DNA of 64,000 nucleotides from a virus (Duplodnaviria > Caudoviricetes): the IMG/VR virus record IMGVR_UViG_2061766007_002263; one strand, 5' to 3'. Both the position numbers and the translations under genes were made by a program. The notes under the pieces are model-generated. The model made no database searches and was not told the DNA's origin. It saw only the letters and a program-made list of their open reading frames with translations. This document shows positions 2,462-35,932 of the stretch, in pieces (the first letter of the stretch is position 1; each line of letters opens with the position of its first letter).

Positions 2462-5383
2462 TTATTCCTGTCCAAGGACAGTGAACTGAAGAAGAACGTA
2501 ATCGCTGTAAGGATAGACCTTTACACGACATGAGATTACAAACTTTCTCTGTGACTTTGTTTGTGGCGTGTTGACAGAAGCAATGTCCACAGTAGCCTCA
2601 GCCCAAATCGGGTCTGAGCCGGAAAGTCTCTTGTCAAGTATAGCTTGTACTTGTTTTGTACGTACTTTATACCAGTAGTCGTTGATACGCTTATGTAACT
2701 GGTCAACCATGACTTTATCACGAATCTCGCGCTTACAAAGGTCAAAAGACATTGAATGTCCGAGATATGACCAATCCGTTACCGCTCCGTCCTGTGTTGA
2801 CTTATGACCTTGTATCATAAGTCCATTCTTGGAGTCGTATGTAATCGGGTTCAAGCCTTTTGCGTCGAGAATTTCAAGAGTCTCATTCGAGAAATTCCAT
2901 CTCTTGTCAAGTACTGCCCTTGAAAGCACACCACCAAGTCCGTTGCTGTCATTTGTTCCCGCAGGAGCGATACCACCGAGTTTCTTCTCCATGATACGCG
3001 CAAGGTTAACACCTACATCACCAATAGGCTGACACCAGTAGTATTTTCCTGTATAGGAGTCATACATCTTGAACTCACCGATGTATTGAGCCGTACCTTT
3101 TGAGCGTCCGGCAACCACAATTGTCTCAGGCTTGTTGAATTCCGCCTTCGTAATAATCTTCGGTGAGATTATCGTGCTTGTATCGTGATATGTAGTACGA
3201 AGAACCATAAGAGGAGCCTTGAAAACTTCTTGTCCGGAGCACTCCATGAAAACAAGAGCGTCGTCATAGCTGTTCTGCTGCGCCTCAATGATACCGTCTT
3301 TTATAGCAGCCGTAAATACAGCGTCTACCCGTGCTTCATCATCATTCGGAAGAGCATTCTGTGTCCATGCACATCCAAGAGTACCCGCATCGATGTTTGC
3401 TTGTACAGCATTTGTCATAGTGCGCTGACCTTTGATTGTGAACGTCTTAACATCTTGTGCCGGACCGATTATGTCTATAATCTTCTCGCCTGTAAAGAAT
3501 CCCTTATCGTCCATTACGCCGAGCTCATCGAACGTATGTACCGGAGTAACCTCGATAAAAGAAGCGTCACTTGATGAAAGAACGTTAGGCCAGTAAATGT
3601 TAACTCCGTCCGCGCTCACGCCGGTCTCAGAAAGAGAGCCAGTCCATTCACCACCAGACATGTACTGTCCAGGGTAAACCTGCTCTTTGCATGAAATCGT
3701 AACTGTATTATAATTTATGTCAGACTGAAGCTTGTATGTTCCACCAAGGCTGCGTCTGAATGTCTGATGACCATATTTTCCGGGTTTTGCCGTATTAGCT
3801 ACATACCAAATAGTTCCAGTACATGCCGCATTGACAACATTACCTGATTCAGACGAGTATGCCTCACCCATATGGTCAAAATCGTCATCATAGCCGGAAC
3901 AGATAAGCGGTCCTGAAACATAAATGTTCTTTGTCTTGTAATCAGGTGTAACATCCGTCCAAACTTCCGCATTGACATCATACTGCCAAAGAGAATGAAG
4001 TCTGTCGTCCTCAGGAGTAAGCCACTTGCTCTCTTCTTCACTCGCAATAACGTCAATTATGTATTTGTCGTTAGATGCCGCAAGGTCTTTAAGGAAAACT
4101 TTCGGTTTGATACCGGATGAATGAATTGCGCTCTCGCCCATTTTCTTGAGGTCACGAAGACCTATGATATTCTGGCTTGAATCAGACTCAAAATCTTTCT
4201 TGAGAATGTATTTTACATTGATATCATAAAGGTATTTGTCATATCCAATGTTGCTCAATGTAATGGATGTCGGTGTCTCGTTAGGTGACTTCTGTGAGAT
4301 ACGGAGGAAACAATCATTCTTGATGTTCACACGATAATAAAGTCTGTCCTCGATGCCTACGATAGGTGAGAAAGTCTTTACTATGGCGTTATTGCCGCCA
4401 TTATTCGCCGCGCTGATTTGCAGCGTAAACTTCTGTCCACCTGAGCCTTTCAAAAGAAGCTGCTCAATAAGTGCCTCGCCCTTAAGACTTCCTAATCCGT
4501 TGATGTTCTCTACCAGTTCAACTGTAGGATTAATCTGCGAGCGATTCTCACCGTCCGTAAAGATAAATCCCGGCATAGCGTCATTTCCCGGCTCAGAACC
4601 ATAATTGAAAATGTTCATAAAGTTCAGGAACGGAACGCCGTATGTCGTAGCTGAAAATGATGGTTTCGTGAACTCAACAGTACCGTTAACTTCTTGCTGG
4701 CTTACCGCACCGAACACAATAGTATATGTTCCTTCCGCCGTAAGCATATAGTATCCTACCGCGGACTCAGTATCAACGTCGTCAACAACGGCATAAATAA
4801 GACCATTATCAAAGTGATAAGCAACCTCGTCACCTTCGTCAAGGCCTGTTCCGTTGTCCTGCCATGACTTCAAGTTCATGTAGTTCAGTTTTGCAATCAA
4901 AGCCGGGCTTACATTTGTAATCTGTATAACACCCTGTCTTGTAGACGAAGTGTTTATCTCCGGGATAGAAATCTCTGACGGCGATATAGAGCTGTCAAAA
5001 TCACAGTCCTCATATCCAGGATATACCTGAACTTCGTAGCTTGGATTGTCCTTATCGTCTACTCTCCAATAATTGTACATGGATTTCGTTGTAAGATATA
5101 CACCACCGTAATATGACGGATAATTTTTTGATGTTCCCGGAGGAGCGGAAATGTAAAGACCGTATTCAGAGTTGAACGCGACCGCTTCGTACAAGTCCGG
5201 CCAGTTAGCCGTCTGCAAGCCTATCATGGCATTAATGGTTTTCTCGTTCCCATAAGGAAAATATGTAGCTTCCGTAGTACCTTTCGGCGCACGGCAAACC
5301 ATGTATCCCTTTATAGGAGCTTCAACCGTAGATGTCGTAAAAGACTCGTCAACGTCTACAAATATCAAACGGAATGACTTCAT
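2462..5383 (-). CDS. contractile tail sheath protein
   Basis: N-terminal VDVDES..APKG; C-terminal sheath domain (IAPAG, L...GLNPI, MIQGHKS, FVISCRVKVYPYSDYVLLQF); 973 aa with a large central insertion. Confidence 0.85.
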   Translation of the reverse strand: MKSFRLIFVDVDESFTTSTVEAPIKGYMVCRAPKGTTEATYFPYGNEKTINAMIGLQTANWPDLYEAVAFNSEYGLYISAPPGTSKNYPSYYGGVYLTTKSMYNYWRVDDKDNPSYEVQVYPGYEDCDFDSSISPSEISIPEINTSSTRQGVIQITNVSPALIAKLNYMNLKSWQDNGTGLDEGDEVAYHFDNGLIYAVVDDVDTESAVGYYMLTAEGTYTIVFGAVSQQEVNGTVEFTKPSFSATTYGVPFLNFMNIFNYGSEPGNDAMPGFIFTDGENRSQINPTVELVENINGLGSLKGEALIEQLLLKGSGGQKFTLQISAANNGGNNAIVKTFSPIVGIEDRLYYRVNIKNDCFLRISQKSPNETPTSITLSNIGYDKYLYDINVKYILKKDFESDSSQNIIGLRDLKKMGESAIHSSGIKPKVFLKDLAASNDKYIIDVIASEEESKWLTPEDDRLHSLWQYDVNAEVWTDVTPDYKTKNIYVSGPLICSGYDDDFDHMGEAYSSESGNVVNAACTGTIWYVANTAKPGKYGHQTFRRSLGGTYKLQSDINYNTVTISCKEQVYPGQYMSGGEWTGSLSETGVSADGVNIYWPNVLSSSDASFIEVTPVHTFDELGVMDDKGFFTGEKIIDIIGPAQDVKTFTIKGQRTMTNAVQANIDAGTLGCAWTQNALPNDDEARVDAVFTAAIKDGIIEAQQNSYDDALVFMECSGQEVFKAPLMVLRTTYHDTSTIISPKIITKAEFNKPETIVVAGRSKGTAQYIGEFKMYDSYTGKYYWCQPIGDVGVNLARIMEKKLGGIAPAGTNDSNGLGGVLSRAVLDKRWNFSNETLEILDAKGLNPITYDSKNGLMIQGHKSTQDGAVTDWSYLGHSMSFDLCKREIRDKVMVDQLHKRINDYWYKVRTKQVQAILDKRLSGSDPIWAEATVDIASVNTPQTKSQRKFVISCRVKVYPYSDYVLLQFTVLGQE

Positions 5384-5581: not shown

Positions 5582-6124
5582 TTATACCGTTTTTTCTTTC
5601 TTTTCTTTCAAAGGGGGCGTTACGTCCACCAGCTCGCCTTTAACGTTGCGCTTAAAAATCCTCTGGTTGCTGCTGCCCCGTAATTTAAGGGTAATATCCC
5701 TGAGCTCCTGCACGAACCTTCCCTCGACAAGATAATCCACTTTGCTAAGCGCAAGGTTTATGTCCTCGTCACCGGCATCACGAAGCTCCTCTATAGTATA
5801 CCCGGACCATAAATAAATCCTTATAGAAGGACATTTCTCCTTTATACGGTTTATAATGTATGCGACACCTTTACGATTCCAAGGTGCCATCGGCTCACCT
5901 CCAAGTATAGAAAAGCATCTCTCCATACCGTTCCTATGTATCGCACGAAGTATGCGTGTAGTAAGTCCGTCCAAGTCTGTGCATTCCGTACCGGTCTCTT
6001 TGTCCCAATACTGCGCATTCTGACATCCCGGACATTTAAAATTACATCCCGCCGTCCATAAGGACACTGCAAAACCGTCCACTGAATCTACTATGTCGTT
6101 TGTTTTTAATGCGACCAAATACAT
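5582..6124 (-). CDS. nrdG: anaerobic ribonucleotide reductase activating enzyme (radical SAM)
   Basis: GCNFKCPGCQN (CxxxCxxC), LGGEP, WSGY, LRGSSNQRI. Confidence 0.95.
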   Translation of the reverse strand: MYLVALKTNDIVDSVDGFAVSLWTAGCNFKCPGCQNAQYWDKETGTECTDLDGLTTRILRAIHRNGMERCFSILGGEPMAPWNRKGVAYIINRIKEKCPSIRIYLWSGYTIEELRDAGDEDINLALSKVDYLVEGRFVQELRDITLKLRGSSNQRIFKRNVKGELVDVTPPLKEKKEKTV

Positions 6125-6269: not shown

Positions 6270-7451
6270 TTACGCTCTTTTTCTAAACCCGGCAAGATAA
6301 CCTTTGCCATAAGTTATGTTTATATAATCAAGATACAATTTTATATCATTCTTTCGAATAAACCTTACGCCGTTTTTAAGCCCGCACTGACGTTTCGCCT
6401 CAAACATACCGTCTTTTGAAGGGTCATAAGGATTCCGCATCGTACCGTTCTCATTAAAGAACTGGTCGCCTTTTATTTCTATAAGCTCACCGTTCAGCCG
6501 GAAATCCGGAAAATAATAATGCCTCTCACCGTCGTACTCATATTCTAACCTCACCGGCTCACGTTCTATTATCATGTCATGGTCAACCGCATAAATCCAT
6601 ACCGCAAGCTCCCATTTGCTGTCGAACCGCATACCGTTATAATCATACCTCGCATATGCCCTTCTCCTAAGTTCAACAGATTGCGACGGGTTCTCAACAC
6701 CATATCTTTCCACACAAGTTCTGCTTGACTTCTCCTTAAAATCATCCGTAAGCCAGTAATGCTTACCATAGATGCCTTCAAAAATCTCCGACTGCTTCTT
6801 CAGAGCCCTGCATTTTATCGGCTCATAAAGCATCGGATGCTCAACGCCGTATCTTTCCATACATGTTTCTTTGTTACGCTCAGGATTGTTAAAATTCTCG
6901 TCCCCATACCGCTCCAGTTTAGTCCGTTTTATTTTTGAAACTATGTTCTCAAGGTGTTCACCATATCTCGCGCGTTTTGTATCTATGACTTTCACGACAA
7001 GCTCCTCAGATTGCAAAGTGGTCGGAGCCCCGTACCTTTCATTCATTGTCTGACGGGCTTTCTCGGAATTGCTGTAATTCTCGTCGCCATATTTCTCCAG
7101 CTTGGTTTTCTTCGCTTTCACCATAAGCTCCTTGGACTTAAACGCATTGTCCACACCAAACTTACGGGTCATCGTGTCTTTAGCTTTGGTCTGTATGTAT
7201 TCAAGATATTTGTCAAACGAGCCATACTTTTTGTCTATTGACTCGTGTCTCTTTCTGTTTGATTCCAGTTTCTGCTCGCTTGTCCTTTTGGATTTGCCGT
7301 CCTTTATATTGCATTCGGCACAATACAACTGATGCTTGGTAGATTTTCTGAATTCCTTTTCCGTCAATTTTCCACATCCTTGACAATAAAAAGACACACG
7401 TGACGGAAATTTCAAAATTTCATCATAAGATTCTATAAACATATGTATCAA
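6270..7451 (-). CDS. free-standing putative homing endonuclease: Zn ribbon + (E/K)(R/K)YG repeats + PD-(D/E)XK domain
   Basis: CQGC/CAEC; about nine repeats such as EKYGDENY, ERYGDENF, ERYGVEHP, ERYGVENP; C-terminal FDSKWE...YFPDF...IEIKG. Inserted between nrdD and nrdG; likely ATG start at 7442. Confidence 0.7.
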   Translation of the reverse strand: MIHMFIESYDEILKFPSRVSFYCQGCGKLTEKEFRKSTKHQLYCAECNIKDGKSKRTSEQKLESNRKRHESIDKKYGSFDKYLEYIQTKAKDTMTRKFGVDNAFKSKELMVKAKKTKLEKYGDENYSNSEKARQTMNERYGAPTTLQSEELVVKVIDTKRARYGEHLENIVSKIKRTKLERYGDENFNNPERNKETCMERYGVEHPMLYEPIKCRALKKQSEIFEGIYGKHYWLTDDFKEKSSRTCVERYGVENPSQSVELRRRAYARYDYNGMRFDSKWELAVWIYAVDHDMIIEREPVRLEYEYDGERHYYFPDFRLNGELIEIKGDQFFNENGTMRNPYDPSKDGMFEAKRQCGLKNGVRFIRKNDIKLYLDYINITYGKGYLAGFRKRA

Positions 7452-7523
7452 TTAGAAGCTTAAAATAGAAAACGGCGAACAACACCGTTTTTCATGGCTG
7501 CTCACCGTTTTCATTAAATCTCA

Positions 7524-8075
7524 TCACTCCGGATTGTTATTCCAATCCACCAAAGAACTTGAATGTTTGTATCTGTGATTTACTTCGTCCACCTTTCCTT
7601 CATTGAAAGCGTCGAGGTAGGAACCAGTAAGATAACCGGTAACACGACGCAGACGCTGTATCACACGATGTCCTGGGACGTCATGCGCACCGCATACAGG
7701 GCATTCGTTGTCGATGTTTCCTTGATAACCACATTCAAGGCATGTGTCCGCTGGACAGTTTATTGCGAAATATGGAATATCTTTCTCCATCGCATAGTCT
7801 ACAATTTGCTCCAATGCCTTAAGATTGTTCTGCGTTCTATCATCAAGCTCGACATACGTAATACATCCTGCATTCGAATATCCGGTAAGCTGACTCTCAA
7901 TGTCAATCTTTTCAAACGGGTCTATTTTCGTCCAGACCGGAACATGCATGGAGTTTGTGAAAAACTGCCTGTAATCTTTCTTGTCCGAACCTTCAATATC
8001 CGAATATGTAACGTCCTTTATCTCACCGTATTTCGCACGGAACTTTTTCATCGCTGTATAACAAAGACTTTCAGC
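7524..8075 (-). CDS. nrdD: class III RNR large subunit, C-terminal gene, exon 3 (glycyl-radical domain)
   Basis: After splicing reads (YTP)AESLCYTAMKKF...; FTNSMH, CLECG/CPVCG Zn site, RRVTGYL glycyl loop. Confidence 0.92.
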   Translation of the reverse strand, partial: AESLCYTAMKKFRAKYGEIKDVTYSDIEGSDKKDYRQFFTNSMHVPVWTKIDPFEKIDIESQLTGYSNAGCITYVELDDRTQNNLKALEQIVDYAMEKDIPYFAINCPADTCLECGYQGNIDNECPVCGAHDVPGHRVIQRLRRVTGYLTGSYLDAFNEGKVDEVNHRYKHSSSLVDWNNNPE

Positions 8076-8371
8076 CGTTAAACCTAAAAACTTTCGTTAA
8101 TAGCCAGACTATATTTTCATCTTTTAATTCTTTTACCAAATTAAAAGCGCCTCTCATTTCGCTAAGATTATTAGCTACTCTACTCATTTATTCATTTAAG
8201 TATTTCACTTAAACTATACTTTCGATAGTCGTTAGAGTCACCCAAAAAGCTTTGGGCTTCCTACGGGGTTAGCTTGCTCTTGTTTAGCCTTTCTTACCAG
8301 ATTATTACTCTTCGCCCGTTTAGAGAGGGATTTTCATTTGTTGTCACCAACAAAGCACCCACTTAAAATCT
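8076..8371 (-). ncRNA. group I intron (296 nt, no ORF) in nrdD
   Basis: 5' exon ends in T (ACACCT) pairing with intron GGGTG (U-G at splice site); terminal G; core elements AAACGGGCGAA, AACCCCGTAGGAAG, CTAACGACTA, AAAATATAGTC; removal restores conserved YYTP|AESLC in frame. Confidence 0.9.
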
Positions 8372-8932
8372 AGGTGTATAATAAACTCCAAAATTAAGTT
8401 TATATTCTTCTTTGAACTCCGCGCATCTTTTTTTGAAAAGACCCTCAATCTTCTTGGCGACTTCCATACCTTTCTCGGTTGTCTGGTCACATCCTACAAG
8501 AAGCTGCAATGTCTCCGCCAAGCCAAGCTGACCTATTACGAGTGTACCGTGCTTGAGCGCGGAACGGATTCCTTCCTCTTCCCTATAACCATACATAGTA
8601 CCGTTTTCATACATGAACTTCGCCGAGTTCTTGTTCTGTGCCGCTATCCAGTTGTATCTTTCTAGCAGACCGTCCTTACAATCATGTATGGCTTTGTCAA
8701 GTATATCCATAAAACAGTCCACAAATAAATCCGGATTGTTCTTGGCTTTTTTCCTGGCTTCCATAGCCAAAGTAGGAAGAATTATCGTAGCCGGAGCGAG
8801 GTTTCCCCGTCCGTCTTTCTGCTGTCCTGTAGCAAGAAAATTATATTCCGGAATCTTGCCGTCAATCACGCTGTTGACAGCTTTAACCCACTCGTCATAC
8901 CAGTTTACATCAAAACCATTGGCTGTTCTACA
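8372..8932 (-). CDS. nrdD: class III RNR large subunit, C-terminal gene, exon 2
   Basis: CRTANGFD..., KDGRGN, LKHGTLVIGQLGLAE, NFGVYYTP. Confidence 0.92.
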
Positions 8933-9190
8933 CATATTTATCTTATGTCACCATAAGCACTGACTATATCTTCTACTTTTCAGTAGTCTTCCGCTTCGAA
9001 CTGGCGCTTATCTCCAGCCCTACTCCGCTACATTCATCACGGATAGTCGATACAGGTTCTTGGTTTCCCAAGCTTCCCACGGTCTCATCTTGCAAATCTT
9101 ACAAGACCTAACCGTTAGCAGACTCTTTTTCAGAATCCACACCCCTTAAGCAGGGTTCAAAAGATTTTAGATGAGCTGTAGTTTACACTT
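8933..9190 (-). ncRNA. group I intron (258 nt, no ORF) in nrdD
   Basis: 5' exon ATGGGT pairs with intron GCTCAT (U-G at splice site); terminal G; core elements TGCTAACGGT, GACCGTGGGAAG, GTATCGACTA, AAGATATAGTC; removal restores STMG|CRT in frame. Confidence 0.92.
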
Positions 9191-9799
9191 ACCCATCGTT
9201 GAAAAGATTGCGGCCGGCGCATTCTTTTCAGGAACAATTTTTAGCTTCTTTGCGTCCTCTACAAGCTCCAAGCCCAAACGGTCTGACAAGCCCTTGTTGT
9301 TTTTAAGCATTCCTATAAGGCTCGACATTTTTTCGTCGCTCAATTCCCCCAAGAAATCTTCCTTAAGAGCATAGGATTTACTGTCGTCATTTCCTGACCA
9401 ATCACAATTCGCATAGTTCGGATAAAGACGCTTTGAGGTGGATTTCAATGCCAGCTTATAAAGGTCATAATTCTTGCTGCCCTTGTCATTCACACCTTTC
9501 ATTTTCTGAAAGATGCCACAAGGGAAAATAGAAGTCCTATGAAGCTTTCCAACGCCATCAATAGAAACATTCAAAATAGCTTTCGTTACCATACGCCCTT
9601 CCGGAAGCGTACAAGTTCCGTAATTAATAGATGAAAAAGGAAGCTGGTTACCCGACCTGCTTTGCAAGCTATTGAGGTTATGATAAAGGCCTTCCGTAGC
9701 TTGGTATACTTCTTTTTCCAACATAGCTAGAGCGTACTGATACGCTTTCTCATGCGCTTTATAACGCTTATCTTTAATAGATACTTCTTCTATCCCCAT
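9191..9799 (-). CDS. nrdD: class III RNR large subunit, C-terminal gene, exon 1 (spliced product about 573 aa)
   Basis: HNLNSLQSRSGNQLPFSSINYG, TSIFPCGIF, RLYPNYAN, STMG; own AGAGGA RBS and ATG. Confidence 0.9.
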
Positions 9800-9815
9800 A
9801 GTATTTTCCTCTTGT

Positions 9816-10682
9816 TTATTCTCCTTTTATGTCTTTTATGAAGCTTTCTATTTCTTCGTCAGACAAGCCTTCCACGTATTTAAGTCCGTCCTTAAAATGC
9901 TTAAGAAATGATTTTCTTACATAAGGAACCATACTCCAGTCGATGTGCGTCGCCGAAACGCCCCCGAACTGCTGCAATGACTGAAGCTGAAACAATACCG
10001 CTACGAGCTGCATGGCTGTATTGACTGAACCGGCAGGACGGATATCAACTTGTCTTGTGTTGAATCCTTTGGACAATAAATCATCTATCGGAACCGAGAG
10101 ACAGTTATGACATCCGATTACATACGAATCCAGGTCGTGTATATAGATTCTGTTGTCGATATGATTCTTGGCGAATTTCGGGCTTATGTAATAATCCAAT
10201 GCCATCTGCTTCAGAAGCTCGCTGTCTGCCTCACCTTTACGACCTCCGAAAGAGTTCTCGTCAAGATTGGCATTCTGGTTCTGAACATCAGACGCATCAA
10301 GCTTTGTCTTGATACGTTTCATTATGTCAAGACGCTTGAACCGTTCCTTAGCCCGCTCATTGCGATAAAGGATAAAAGCTTTGGCAACGTCATAGCAGTT
10401 TTTGTTCTGAAGACCTTTCTCAACAAGGTCCTGAATCTCCTCGACGTTTACCTGGAAAGCTTCTCGTTCATCCTCTGGTTTTTTAAGCTGTTCCTTTTCG
10501 AAAGACTCCTTGTTCTTCTCAAGGGTTTTCGTTACGAACTCCAGTACTTTTTGAATCTGCTCGTCGGTGATTCGGTGTTCCAGACTCACCGCGTTGTTGG
10601 CGGCACTGATAGCGTTTATAATGTTTTTTTCCTTAAAATCTACACGCTTGCCGTCCCTTTTTACAACTTTTGTGTTTTCCAT
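9816..10682 (-). CDS. nrdD: class III RNR large subunit, N-terminal gene (ATP cone + first part of barrel)
   Basis: VVKRDG ATP cone, NQNANLDE, IYIHDLD, HNC, QSLQQFGGV; ends with TAA at 9816. Confidence 0.92.
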   Translation of the reverse strand: MENTKVVKRDGKRVDFKEKNIINAISAANNAVSLEHRITDEQIQKVLEFVTKTLEKNKESFEKEQLKKPEDEREAFQVNVEEIQDLVEKGLQNKNCYDVAKAFILYRNERAKERFKRLDIMKRIKTKLDASDVQNQNANLDENSFGGRKGEADSELLKQMALDYYISPKFAKNHIDNRIYIHDLDSYVIGCHNCLSVPIDDLLSKGFNTRQVDIRPAGSVNTAMQLVAVLFQLQSLQQFGGVSATHIDWSMVPYVRKSFLKHFKDGLKYVEGLSDEEIESFIKDIKGE

Positions 10683-33984: not shown

Positions 33985-34272
33985 CTACTCTTTGTCCTCT
34001 GTTTCGAGCGTTCCGATAATGATTTCTTGTACCGCTCCTTTAGCTACAGCCTCATTTACTTCGTTTTTTTCTGTAACCGCGTCTTTTGGAAGGTCACCTG
34101 CTTTTACAAGCTCTTTTATGAACGTTCCAAGATACTTTGTAGCTTGAGCGGGCTCGTCGAATACAATCGGCGAGTATATCGGATAAGCAAGTGTTTCGCT
34201 GTGGAATCCTACGCGAATCTGCTTATTATAGATAACTATTGGCTGGAACAATCTTCCGTCACTAATCATCAA
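33985..34272 (-). CDS. hypothetical protein
   Basis: 95-aa ORF overlapping the groEL stop; AAGGAG RBS. Confidence 0.65.
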   Translation of the reverse strand: MMISDGRLFQPIVIYNKQIRVGFHSETLAYPIYSPIVFDEPAQATKYLGTFIKELVKAGDLPKDAVTEKNEVNEAVAKGAVQEIIIGTLETEDKE

Positions 34273-35932
34273 AGATACTCCTTTCTTGGTCTATGACAGC
34301 ATCATTTGCTTTTACGTGGCAATTCATTGCGTCGCTGGTTATTACGCAGTCTGTCGTAACGAATGTACCGGCAAGTGACGTTGAATATTGTATAGCAAGT
34401 ATCTCGACTTTAACCGGGTCGATAATACCGGCATTATACATGTCGTCACAAAGTTCCTCGGTTTTCGCGTTATAACCGAAATTCGGATTCTTGGATTCTT
34501 TTATTTTCTCCGACCAGTATCCTGGGTCTTTTCCGGTGGACTCGATTATAAGCCTTGCGGGGCTTTCCATTACTTTCAAAAACTTCTGATATCCTACTTC
34601 CTGTGTCGGATTATCGAGAGGAACATGATTGTCTTTAGCCTCTTTTGTAGCATGCAGAAGCCCCGCACCACCACCTGCAAGTATACCGTTGTTTATTGCG
34701 GTATATACAGAGTTCACGGCATCCTCATAGCGGTCTTTCTTCTCTTTTACTTCGGCATCAGTAAAGCCTCCGACCCAGATTACCGCAACGCCGCCTGAAA
34801 GCGAAGCTATACGTTCATTAAGATATCTTATCTCATATTCAGACATTGCCTCTTCGTCGGAACCGTCGGTTCCTCTTGTAATCTTGTCTTTTATGCTTTT
34901 TATATGATTATCGATATCCTCTTGATTTCCTTTTCCTCCGAGAATGTTCATCTTTTTCGGTGTAGCCGTGAAGTTTTCTGACGAGCCAAAATATGACGCA
35001 TTGAAAGTATCTATGGATTTTCCAAGCTTGCCTTCTACGATTGTCGCGCCGGTTACTTTGGCGATGTCCACGAGATTGTCGTCCATAGCTTCCTTTGACG
35101 CTCCGGCAGGACCGACCATTACGGCGCTGAATCTGTTACTACTTACATTATCGATAAACACAGAAATAAAATCGTCTGAGTATGACGGAGCTACGATTAC
35201 CAAGTCGCCTTTTGCCAATGAAAAAATAGGCTGGATGTCTTTAAGTGATTCCAGTTTTTTTCCATATACAAAATATGACGGATTGGTATATCTAACGGTA
35301 TTATTATCGGAGTTTACGCTGCAGGAAGAAAGGTATCCACGATTTACCTCGAATCCGGATGAGTATGTGACGCTGGTTTCGCCTTTACGGTTTTTTGCCG
35401 CGTCAACACATACAACACCGTCTTCGCCTACTTGTACGAAAGCGTCTTTTATTATGTTGCCTATTTCCGAATCATTGTTGGCGGATATAGTGGCTACTTT
35501 GAGTATGTCTTCCTCAGACTCTATTGATTTTTTGTTTTTCTCAAGGATTTCTATAACGTCTTTCGCGGCTTTTTGGAATCCACGTTTGATATCAACGGAA
35601 TCAAAATCACGTTCGATTAGCTCGTTTCCCGCTTCGCATAGCTCTACTGAAAGAAGCGTAGTAGTGGTGGAGCCGTCGCCACATTCACCGTTCACTTTTC
35701 TAACACTGTCCTTAAGATAGCTTACTCCAAGGTTTTTATAGGGGTCAGTAAAATCAATGAAGTCAAGGACTGAAACTCCGTCCTTGGTTACTACCGGATG
35801 TATGGTTCCATTGTCGAGCATAACCGTATGTCCCTTCGGACCTAGTGTGCTCGTTACGGCTTTCTTTGCCTCAATCATTCCCGCCAGTACTTTGGAACGG
35901 GCATTGCTTTTGAATGTTATTATTTTACCCAT
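34262..35932 (-). CDS. groEL: phage chaperonin (GroEL-like)
   Basis: TLGPKG, VTKDGVSV, GDGSTT, ATISANND, KEKKDRYEDA, GGGAGL, GIIDPVKV. Confidence 0.93.
   Translation of the reverse strand: MGKIITFKSNARSKVLAGMIEAKKAVTSTLGPKGHTVMLDNGTIHPVVTKDGVSVLDFIDFTDPYKNLGVSYLKDSVRKVNGECGDGSTTTTLLSVELCEAGNELIERDFDSVDIKRGFQKAAKDVIEILEKNKKSIESEEDILKVATISANNDSEIGNIIKDAFVQVGEDGVVCVDAAKNRKGETSVTYSSGFEVNRGYLSSCSVNSDNNTVRYTNPSYFVYGKKLESLKDIQPIFSLAKGDLVIVAPSYSDDFISVFIDNVSSNRFSAVMVGPAGASKEAMDDNLVDIAKVTGATIVEGKLGKSIDTFNASYFGSSENFTATPKKMNILGGKGNQEDIDNHIKSIKDKITRGTDGSDEEAMSEYEIRYLNERIASLSGGVAVIWVGGFTDAEVKEKKDRYEDAVNSVYTAINNGILAGGGAGLLHATKEAKDNHVPLDNPTQEVGYQKFLKVMESPARLIIESTGKDPGYWSEKIKESKNPNFGYNAKTEELCDDMYNAGIIDPVKVEILAIQYSTSLAGTFVTTDCVITSDAMNCHVKANDAVIDQERSIFDD

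Follow-up and report, generated by a model that had tools for sequence, protein, structure and literature searches.

A putative two-chain class III ribonucleotide reductase from an apparently empty or scarred cassette site in a tailed-phage genome

Introduction

Working split ribonucleotide reductases (RNRs) are known for class I, and short-gap splits for class II. The class I example is the nrdA-a/mobE/nrdA-b arrangement of Aeromonas phage Aeh1, in which the two chains of a class Ia enzyme form a composite active site and are fully active, provided that the insertion-derived tails are present (PMC3045599; the split was also described by Friedrich et al. 2007, as cited therein). For class III, a limited literature search found no description of a conserved two-chain enzyme cut within the barrel, and only passing notes of fragmented genes. 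The locus considered here lies in a 64,000 nt stretch of DNA from a gut-type phage of the Caudoviricetes (IMG/VR record IMGVR_UViG_2061766007_002263), which is referred to in its entirety as the window. On the minus strand of the window the class III gene nrdD is divided into two consecutive genes, nrdD-alpha and nrdD-beta. An earlier note, made from the letters of this DNA, had proposed that the class III RNR is made of two chains, one bearing the ATP cone and the HNC cysteine and the other the thiyl cysteine together with the glycyl loop. This is still the best-supported reading, with the same cut in at least seven diverged relatives, dN/dS values of 0.04–0.14 and a gapless beta alignment in its favour, but the note had missed two introns. 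We consider it probable that the locus encodes a working two-chain class III reductase that stems from a mobile gene-splitting cassette, here in an empty or scarred form.

According to this proposal, a single transcript would carry both genes. Alpha, with the ATP cone, the HNC cysteine and the beginning of the catalytic barrel, would be translated as far as its TAA, and ribosomes would restart 16 nt further on at an ATG led by a Shine–Dalgarno (SD) sequence. Splicing of two group I introns would then provide a beta chain that completes the barrel and contributes the thiyl cysteine of MGCR, along with the zinc ribbon and the glycyl-radical loop. Alpha and beta would assemble non-covalently into a composite active site, activated by NrdG. 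The cut would lie in a short linker behind an ordered surface helix, at the docking site of a mobile cassette, of which the window would hold the empty version, be it a scar after loss of the endonuclease gene or a split allele that was never invaded.

Results

Anatomy of the split nrdD

The NRDD domain is complete and collinear over the four coding pieces of the locus (Table 1), which match positions 2–139, 129–248, 272–414 and 426–562 of the 562-position PF13597 profile, the first of these in alpha alongside the ATP cone (PF03477). Two chains are the expected product, with a spliced beta of 573 aa. Both catalytic cysteines and the glycyl-radical motif are present: the HNC cysteine is C194 of alpha, as aligned to solved NrdD structures, the other cysteine is restored in STMG|CRT after splicing, and RRVTGYL is accompanied by a PF01228 match. 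These cysteines are the equivalents of C79 and C290 in T4 numbering. The earlier statement that all catalytic motifs are intact is hence correct for the spliced product but not for the unspliced DNA, where intron 1 severs MGCR.

Alpha possesses a C-terminal helix tail, ...SDEEIESFIKDIKGE, and its 3′ end reads ...IKGE (AAA GGA GAA TAA), with the stop codon at 9818–9816. An SD-like AGAGGA at 9812–9807 follows in the spacer, 7 nt ahead of the ATG at 9799 that opens beta (MGIEEVSIKDKRYK) in the +1 frame relative to alpha. This stop and restart in another frame had been noted before; the coordinates are confirmed, and variant copies (see below) agree. A correctly spaced SD core is found ahead of 6.9 % of all ATGs in the window, and the ribosome-binding site (RBS) of beta is therefore not significant on its own. 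The positions of stop and ATG are more than chance, however, because both fall at the A-chain ends and B-chain starts (the counterparts of alpha and beta) of relatives. No terminator was found between nrdD-alpha and nrdD-beta.

The break lies between ...KDGLKY and AYQYA, within the loop to which it had originally been assigned, as alignment to the structures of T4 NrdD (1H78) and P. copri NrdD (8P23) confirms. It corresponds approximately to T4 residues 154–158 and P. copri residues 253–276: alpha aligns up to residue 154 or 253, respectively, and beta from residue 158 or 276, with nothing missing. The length of this loop is 3 residues in the T4 enzyme and about 22 in that of P. copri. A split intein in a fractured gene has its N-intein of ~100 aa on the first chain, its C-intein of ~35 aa on the other, and a nucleophile at +1 (PMC2677866). 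This explanation was rejected for the window, where only ~19 (alpha) and ~17 (beta) residues extend beyond the conserved core, and align to the host loop of continuous relatives.

Table 1. Features of the nrdD locus; positions are those of the window, other than where a relative is named
Feature	Position	Strand	Description and support
nrdD-alpha (ORF A)	9816..10682	minus	288 aa; ATP cone and N-terminal NrdD core; open reading frame (ORF) list, Pfam, PDB alignments
Intercistronic spacer	9800..9815	minus	ACAAGAGGAAAATACT; 16 nt; sequence; predicted unpaired (fold)
nrdD-beta exon 1	9191..9799	minus	203 codons, MGIEEV...FSTMG; start codon aligned with B-chain starts of split relatives
Group I intron 1	8933..9190	minus	258 nt, no ORF; interrupts the MGCR finger-loop motif after its G; RF00028 28.3 bits, E-value 2.5e-4
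nrdD-beta exon 2	8372..8932	minus	187 codons, CRTANG...GVYYTP
Group I intron 2	8076..8371	minus	296 nt, no ORF; at YYTP|AESL; RF00028 19 bits, E-value 0.15, weak
nrdD-beta exon 3	7524..8075	minus	183 codons and stop; Zn-ribbon cysteines, glycyl-radical motif RRVTGYL; PF13597 426–562, PF01228
Terminator-like hairpin	7469..7491	minus	directly 3′ of nrdD-beta
Free-standing homing-endonuclease-like gene	6270..7451	minus	393 aa; DUF7487 repeats, partial phrog_3339 match; between nrdD and nrdG
nrdG, radical-SAM (S-adenosylmethionine) activase partner	5582..6124	minus	Fer4_12 (7.9e-33) and Radical_SAM; intact
Second split site	L002:5420-5480; L003:5345-5410; L037:5430-5510; window equivalent 9191-9290		

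Relatives cut at the same loop

DNA loci were gathered by three collection scans and one degenerate DNA pattern scan for KDGLKYVE. The loop is uninterrupted in more than 200 of the ~225 loci that contain both NrdD parts, whilst seven distinct loci are cut there: L004, L034, L056 (on the same contig as L170), L082, L118, L159 and L237, with L130 as a partial case. The earlier note had suggested looking for the same break in related phages; it is present in seven diverged loci. The A chains of split relatives end in tails such as ...ILEKSK, ...ELESNAE, ...ILKD and ...KGDVKE, and their B heads follow the pattern M..(V/I).D(V/I)SI.D..YK, in register with MGIEEVSIKDKRYK of the window; the B starts MDIKDISITD, MRDVIDVSIDD, MNVTDIEITD and MKGTVSITN, for example, align with MGIEEVSIKD. 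A length-restricted protein search provided ~20 further clusters (53–72 % identity) in which the N-terminal ORF ends in the same loop, with tails resembling ...GLSDDEIKNFEKELKGDVKE, ...KKSDKKIEKIIKKIKEEK and ...KSDKEIEKINDKILEKNK. No match was obtained when the locus was compared by megablast with 50,697 phage records. The closest named phages, Thomasclavelia phages TR-TP1 and TR-TP2, were found at the protein level only (51–70 % identity) and are continuous at the loop.

The assertion that nothing is inserted at the break holds for the window lineage, but not for its split relatives, where a homing-endonuclease gene or other cargo occupies 1.2–3 kb between the halves. In L004, L034, L056, L082 and L118 the gap holds one gene of 438–498 aa. 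As a set these genes are mutually homologous (31–52 % identity); those of L004, L034, L056 and L118 are so over their full length (38–52 %), and that of L082 shares the nuclease core. The family is characterized by DUF7487 repeats together with this core. The two members that were scanned, from L004 and L082, match the PHROG 'homing endonuclease' family phrog_3339, the latter over its full length with 371 bits. The 1.2 kb gap of L159 contains short ORFs only, with no full-length gene of the endonuclease family found there, and that of L237 holds at least 2 kb of other ORFs. Spacers around the inserted gene can be as short as 1–5 nt (1 nt and 4 nt in L082; 4 nt and an ATGA overlap in L034). There is consequently no room for an intron core, which makes two separately translated chains obligatory in those loci; an intron within the occupied gaps was rejected on the same grounds, as spacers of 1–5 nt and ATGA overlaps are too small for a catalytic core.

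The window has an endonuclease-like gene of its own outside the break, with a PD-(D/E)XK-like C-terminus (as read by eye), which lies 3′ of the terminator-like hairpin and overlaps a promoter-like site. That this gene might be the relocated gap-filling endonuclease was considered and rejected, since only the repeat region is similar. Also on the minus strand, at 34262-35932, the window carries a gene for a chaperonin of the Cpn60/GroEL family (PF00118, 1.2e-57); a part for it in folding or assembling fragmented enzymes would be pure speculation.

Further observations were made within these relatives. An ORF of 72–78 aa (...ENGKDWEVY..GSLD.TFTE.AKKWK.YPKIG.GWYAGGTVFK.VKIEDNKVYVEED) is conserved in L056 (4974-5210) and, on the reverse strand, in the L237 gap (3764-3982 of the flipped locus), and so accompanies different cargo in the alpha/beta gaps of two distinct phages. 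Separately, in-frame stops occur inside well-aligned NrdD sequences, with TGA in L016 and L033, and TAG in L021, L024, L070, L077, L105, L135 and L144. TGA stands at the conserved W of HLDW, whilst TAG stands at the Q of NTAFQLV in L024 and at the usual Y of HDLDxY in L077. Stop recoding (TGA=W, TAG=Q) is probable for several of these phages, whilst the window shows no sign of it.

The occupied gaps also bear on whether a single chain could still be made by recoding. Here, part of the ribosomes would shift by +1 (e.g. tRNA-Lys from AAA to AAG at A-AAA-GGA), or would hop from GAA-TAA to a downstream GAA. The two frames do differ by +1 and overlap for a few codons, the GAA before the stop recurs in the beta frame 13 nt further on, and an SD-like AAGGAG lies just 5′ of the stop. 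Re-pairing of tRNA-Glu from GAA to AAU would, however, be poor, the AAA-G site comes without a hungry codon, and the region has no take-off hairpin (minimum free energy −7.3 kcal/mol, z −1.96) and an unpaired RBS. Moreover, the same codon recurrence is seen in three of nine neighbouring short intergenic gaps, and neither L082 nor any other split locus conserves the GAA pair. In relatives the chain ends stay the same despite the kilobases that part them, so that read-through is not needed, and hopping is impossible where the gap measures 1.4–3 kb. We therefore regard recoding as very improbable, and the stop-hopping raised as an alternative in the earlier note, on the strength of that matching GAA, has no support in view of the chance-level recurrence, the missing hairpin and the kilobase gaps. 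Recoding of TAA itself was rejected, as TAA is the commonest stop in the window (28 of 47 long ORFs) and read-through would meet the next TAA after 13 codons.

Selection and structure at the cut

The split state is maintained by purifying selection in split relatives. Comparing split genes only with one another gives a dN/dS of 0.106 for the A chains of L118 and L159, 0.136 for their B exon 1, and 0.043 for the A chains of L056 and L130; dS is high in these pairs (0.8–2.2), so that the ratios are approximate, with dN far below dS.

Two continuous homologues, P0017 and P0081, carry the same tail helix and the same beta head, joined by 4–16 residues. In an AlphaFold model of P0017 (mean predicted local distance difference test (pLDDT) score 81), a helix at residues 254–265 (SDKEIEEIIRNI) is followed by a linker at 266–277 and a long helix at 284–311. 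The cut of the split forms maps to the linker, in a region with pLDDT values of 92–98. As helices lie on either side of the linker in this model, the cut appears to separate two ordered elements that are packed together in the intact protein, and the alpha tail helix and beta head probably help the two chains to dock.

Group I introns in nrdD-beta

The core of intron 1 is GAAGAUAUAGUC. In both introns the 5′ exon ends in U, the intron ends in G, and a core of GA(A/G)AUAUAGUC is found. The two RF00028 scores (Table 1) lie below the Rfam gathering score of 50, and at the gathering threshold Rfam gives no match anywhere in the window. At an E-value of ≤0.1 it similarly gives none in L004, L034 and L056, loci that clearly contain introns, and its silence is therefore uninformative here. 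The exon boundaries are confirmed by the 508-aa B chain of L082, which is intron-free: spliced beta aligns to it end to end with 66 % identity, without a gap at either exon junction. Relatives with 55–58 % identity have ORFs that end in ...STMGKCKLQLI, the same read-through encoded by intron 1, which indicates that this intron is a shared mobile element. An intein-like insert of ~160 aa is found in L004 (6575-8422) exactly at STMG|CRT, the position of intron 1 in the window. Introns, an intein and endonuclease genes all target this nrdD gene.

Second split site and tolerance of fission

A second loop, after the helical insert ...LGL(E/Y/K)I..E and before ...STMG, is split in relatives with nothing inserted, by an ATGA overlap in L002 and L084, by 2 nt in L003 and by 19 nt in L037. 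The window reads through this loop (...LGLELVEDAKKLKIVPEKNAPAAIFSTMG). L056 is cut at both loops, which implies three chains. Evidently, this clade of NrdD tolerates fission.

Evolution of the split

In a tree of the A domain, built without the loop columns, split alleles interleave with continuous ones, even where the sequences are almost identical (P0012 versus L088; P0007 versus P0021), and the well-supported branches force at least 11 changes of state. The nearest A-domain relative of the window, P0004 (74 % identity), is continuous with an unrelated loop. The interleaving fits movement of the loop, stop, endonuclease gene and restart together, by homing with co-conversion of the flanks. 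We tentatively entertain the possibility that a homing-endonuclease cassette spreads with stop, RBS and start by co-conversion, turning a continuous nrdD into two genes; that the fission outlasts loss of the endonuclease; and that alpha tail and beta head dock to give a working two-chain enzyme (three-chain in some relatives). If this is true, the cassette would work like a ratchet, with selfish genes converting enzymes of one chain into enzymes of several. With regard to the earlier impression that the split looks selected rather than decayed, it is indeed kept in split relatives at the dN/dS values given above; nevertheless, an empty or scarred mobile-cassette site explains it better than selection for its own sake.

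With the endonuclease ORF taken out, the junction of L082 can be aligned to that of the window, placing AGAGGA on the AAGGAG that is the RBS of the L082 endonuclease gene, with TACT-ATG-G shared; 112 and 355 of 2000 shuffles scored as well, and this putative 'scar' is suggestive only. For the empty split of the window, loss of an endonuclease gene is somewhat more likely than a split allele that was never invaded, because occupied gaps stand to empty ones at 7:1 and the alleles are interleaved. The converse, in which the empty split came first and its intergenic gap was invaded by endonuclease genes afterwards, strikes us as rather doubtful. It is in keeping with the tendency of free-standing endonuclease genes to settle between genes, and with the aligned SD serving the endonuclease gene in L082 (AAGGAG) and beta in the window (AGAGGA); gene 43 of phages 44RR and 25 has, in addition, been published as a precedent in which invasion followed the split (PMC2988022). 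Set against these are the seven occupied gaps versus one empty lineage, and the interleaved alleles, which fit spread of the whole cassette with co-conversion and so make later loss simpler.

Variant copies and the reality of the break

Three versions of the 288-aa alpha ORF were recovered, P0002, P0122 (L34Q, P216S) and P0124 (L34Q, I282V), all of which end in ...IKGE. A B-start fragment, P0127 (MGIEEV...), is present on four contigs, the longest of which, at 1729 nt, equals the contig of P0124. This matching size suggests that alpha and beta lie together on the 1729 nt contig, which would be too short for an insert. The alpha versions and B-start fragments come from independent Logan and ENA assemblies and have the same ends. 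As the same stop and restart are seen in slightly different copies from independent assemblies, the break is no read error. A change of 1 nt in an AAAA run would remove the break, and a homopolymer error of sequencing or assembly in a truly continuous gene might on this basis be suspected. Given three versions of the alpha ORF and a B-start ORF with the same ends in independent assemblies, and a run that at 4 nt is short for systematic indel error, such an artefact is extremely improbable.

A real but recent lesion is a different matter, and it is here that the points weighing against a working enzyme from a cassette site are concentrated. In this scenario an extra A in the AAAA run, or imprecise deletion of an endonuclease gene, would have produced an early pseudogene that is as yet without further damage. 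One A fewer in this run (9828–9825) fuses the frames (...IKENKQEENTMGIEEV...) through a plausible linker of 11 residues, and the B frame is open for nine codons upstream of the ATG. Amongst the ~225 loci, a split at this first site with nothing inserted is confined to the window lineage, which is shallow; no second case emerged from the three collection scans and the KDGLKYVE DNA pattern scan. The P216S of variant P0122, furthermore, hits an RPA motif that is invariant in 18 aligned relatives, and could reflect either low-coverage error or relaxed constraint. To these may be added the weakness of the L082 junction alignment, the approximate nature of the dN/dS ratios, and the fact that selection on the window allele itself is not measurable, because its lineage is known only from near-identical copies. 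Conversely, the stop, RBS and ATG are in register with functional chain ends of split relatives, the 861 codons contain no other lesion, both introns and nrdG are intact, and the split state is under strong purifying selection elsewhere. Nine stop-free codons are, moreover, expected by chance more often than not in purine-rich sequence. Overall, decay by a recent frameshift seems unlikely.

Discussion

If the two chains assemble, the locus provides a natural case of a glycyl-radical enzyme in which separate polypeptides make up the barrel and the active site, and with it a defined and naturally tolerated cut site for engineering. Beyond this, the loci offer a natural series on the question of whether gene fissions are brought about by selfish endonucleases or simply settled by them: diverged phages have members of one endonuclease family at this gap, the window has the empty version, other cargo accumulates in the gap, and a second split site lies nearby. 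Annotators should also be warned that the 'partial NrdD' ORFs of 260–330 aa, of which viromes from gut and rumen contain many, may be true subunits.

Fragmented class III genes have been noted in other phages. In the Jug gut phages, nrdD is found in four fragments, and the junction of the 230-aa and 91-aa fragments shows no evidence of RNA splicing (2026 study, PMC12880540); the study takes that junction no further. Aeromonas phage phiAS4 likewise has a class III nrdD in several pieces, but these resemble the result of recent breakage; a relative whose nrdD is 97 % identical at the nucleotide level has the gene whole (PMC3653736). The short, unoccupied gap of the window is paralleled in Thermus phage phiYS40, where nrdJ-a and nrdJ-b are two consecutive RNR ORFs with a 12 nt gap and nothing inserted (as cited in PMC3653736). 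That enzyme is of class II, however, with another cut position, and the account given in PMC3653736, as far as consulted, reports no link to a mobile endonuclease.

Bypassing in T4 gene 60 resembles the present junction in having a stop right after the take-off codon, a matching codon downstream and a mobile endonuclease, mobA (10.1101/2022.08.31.505936). Its gap of 50 nt contrasts with 13 nt here, and the window shows neither a take-off stem–loop nor conservation of the codon pair, its relatives having kilobase gaps instead. A likeness in organization is found in gene 43 of phages 44RR and 25, which is split in the same place in both, with a seg endonuclease in one and a short untranslated spacer in the other, and which raises the same question of whether the endonuclease caused or invaded the split (PMC2988022). 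The enzyme and the endonuclease family are different ones, and the polymerase halves have been shown to co-purify and to be active (PMC2988022).

In comparison with Aeh1, which is the nearest of the characterized systems, the present enzyme belongs to class III rather than class Ia, and the window gap is 16 nt without an endonuclease gene. The tails of the Aeh1 chains are unique and thought to be insertion-derived, whereas the tail and head described here are homologous to the loop of continuous P0017 and P0081; activity, too, has been shown for Aeh1, whilst that of the window enzyme is a prediction. What the two systems share is an RNR catalytic subunit cut inside its ten-stranded barrel, with the active-site cysteines on two chains that are separately translated (in the window, by prediction), and a free-standing homing endonuclease in the cut, here in the relatives, whose 3′ end overlaps the start of the second half or runs into it.

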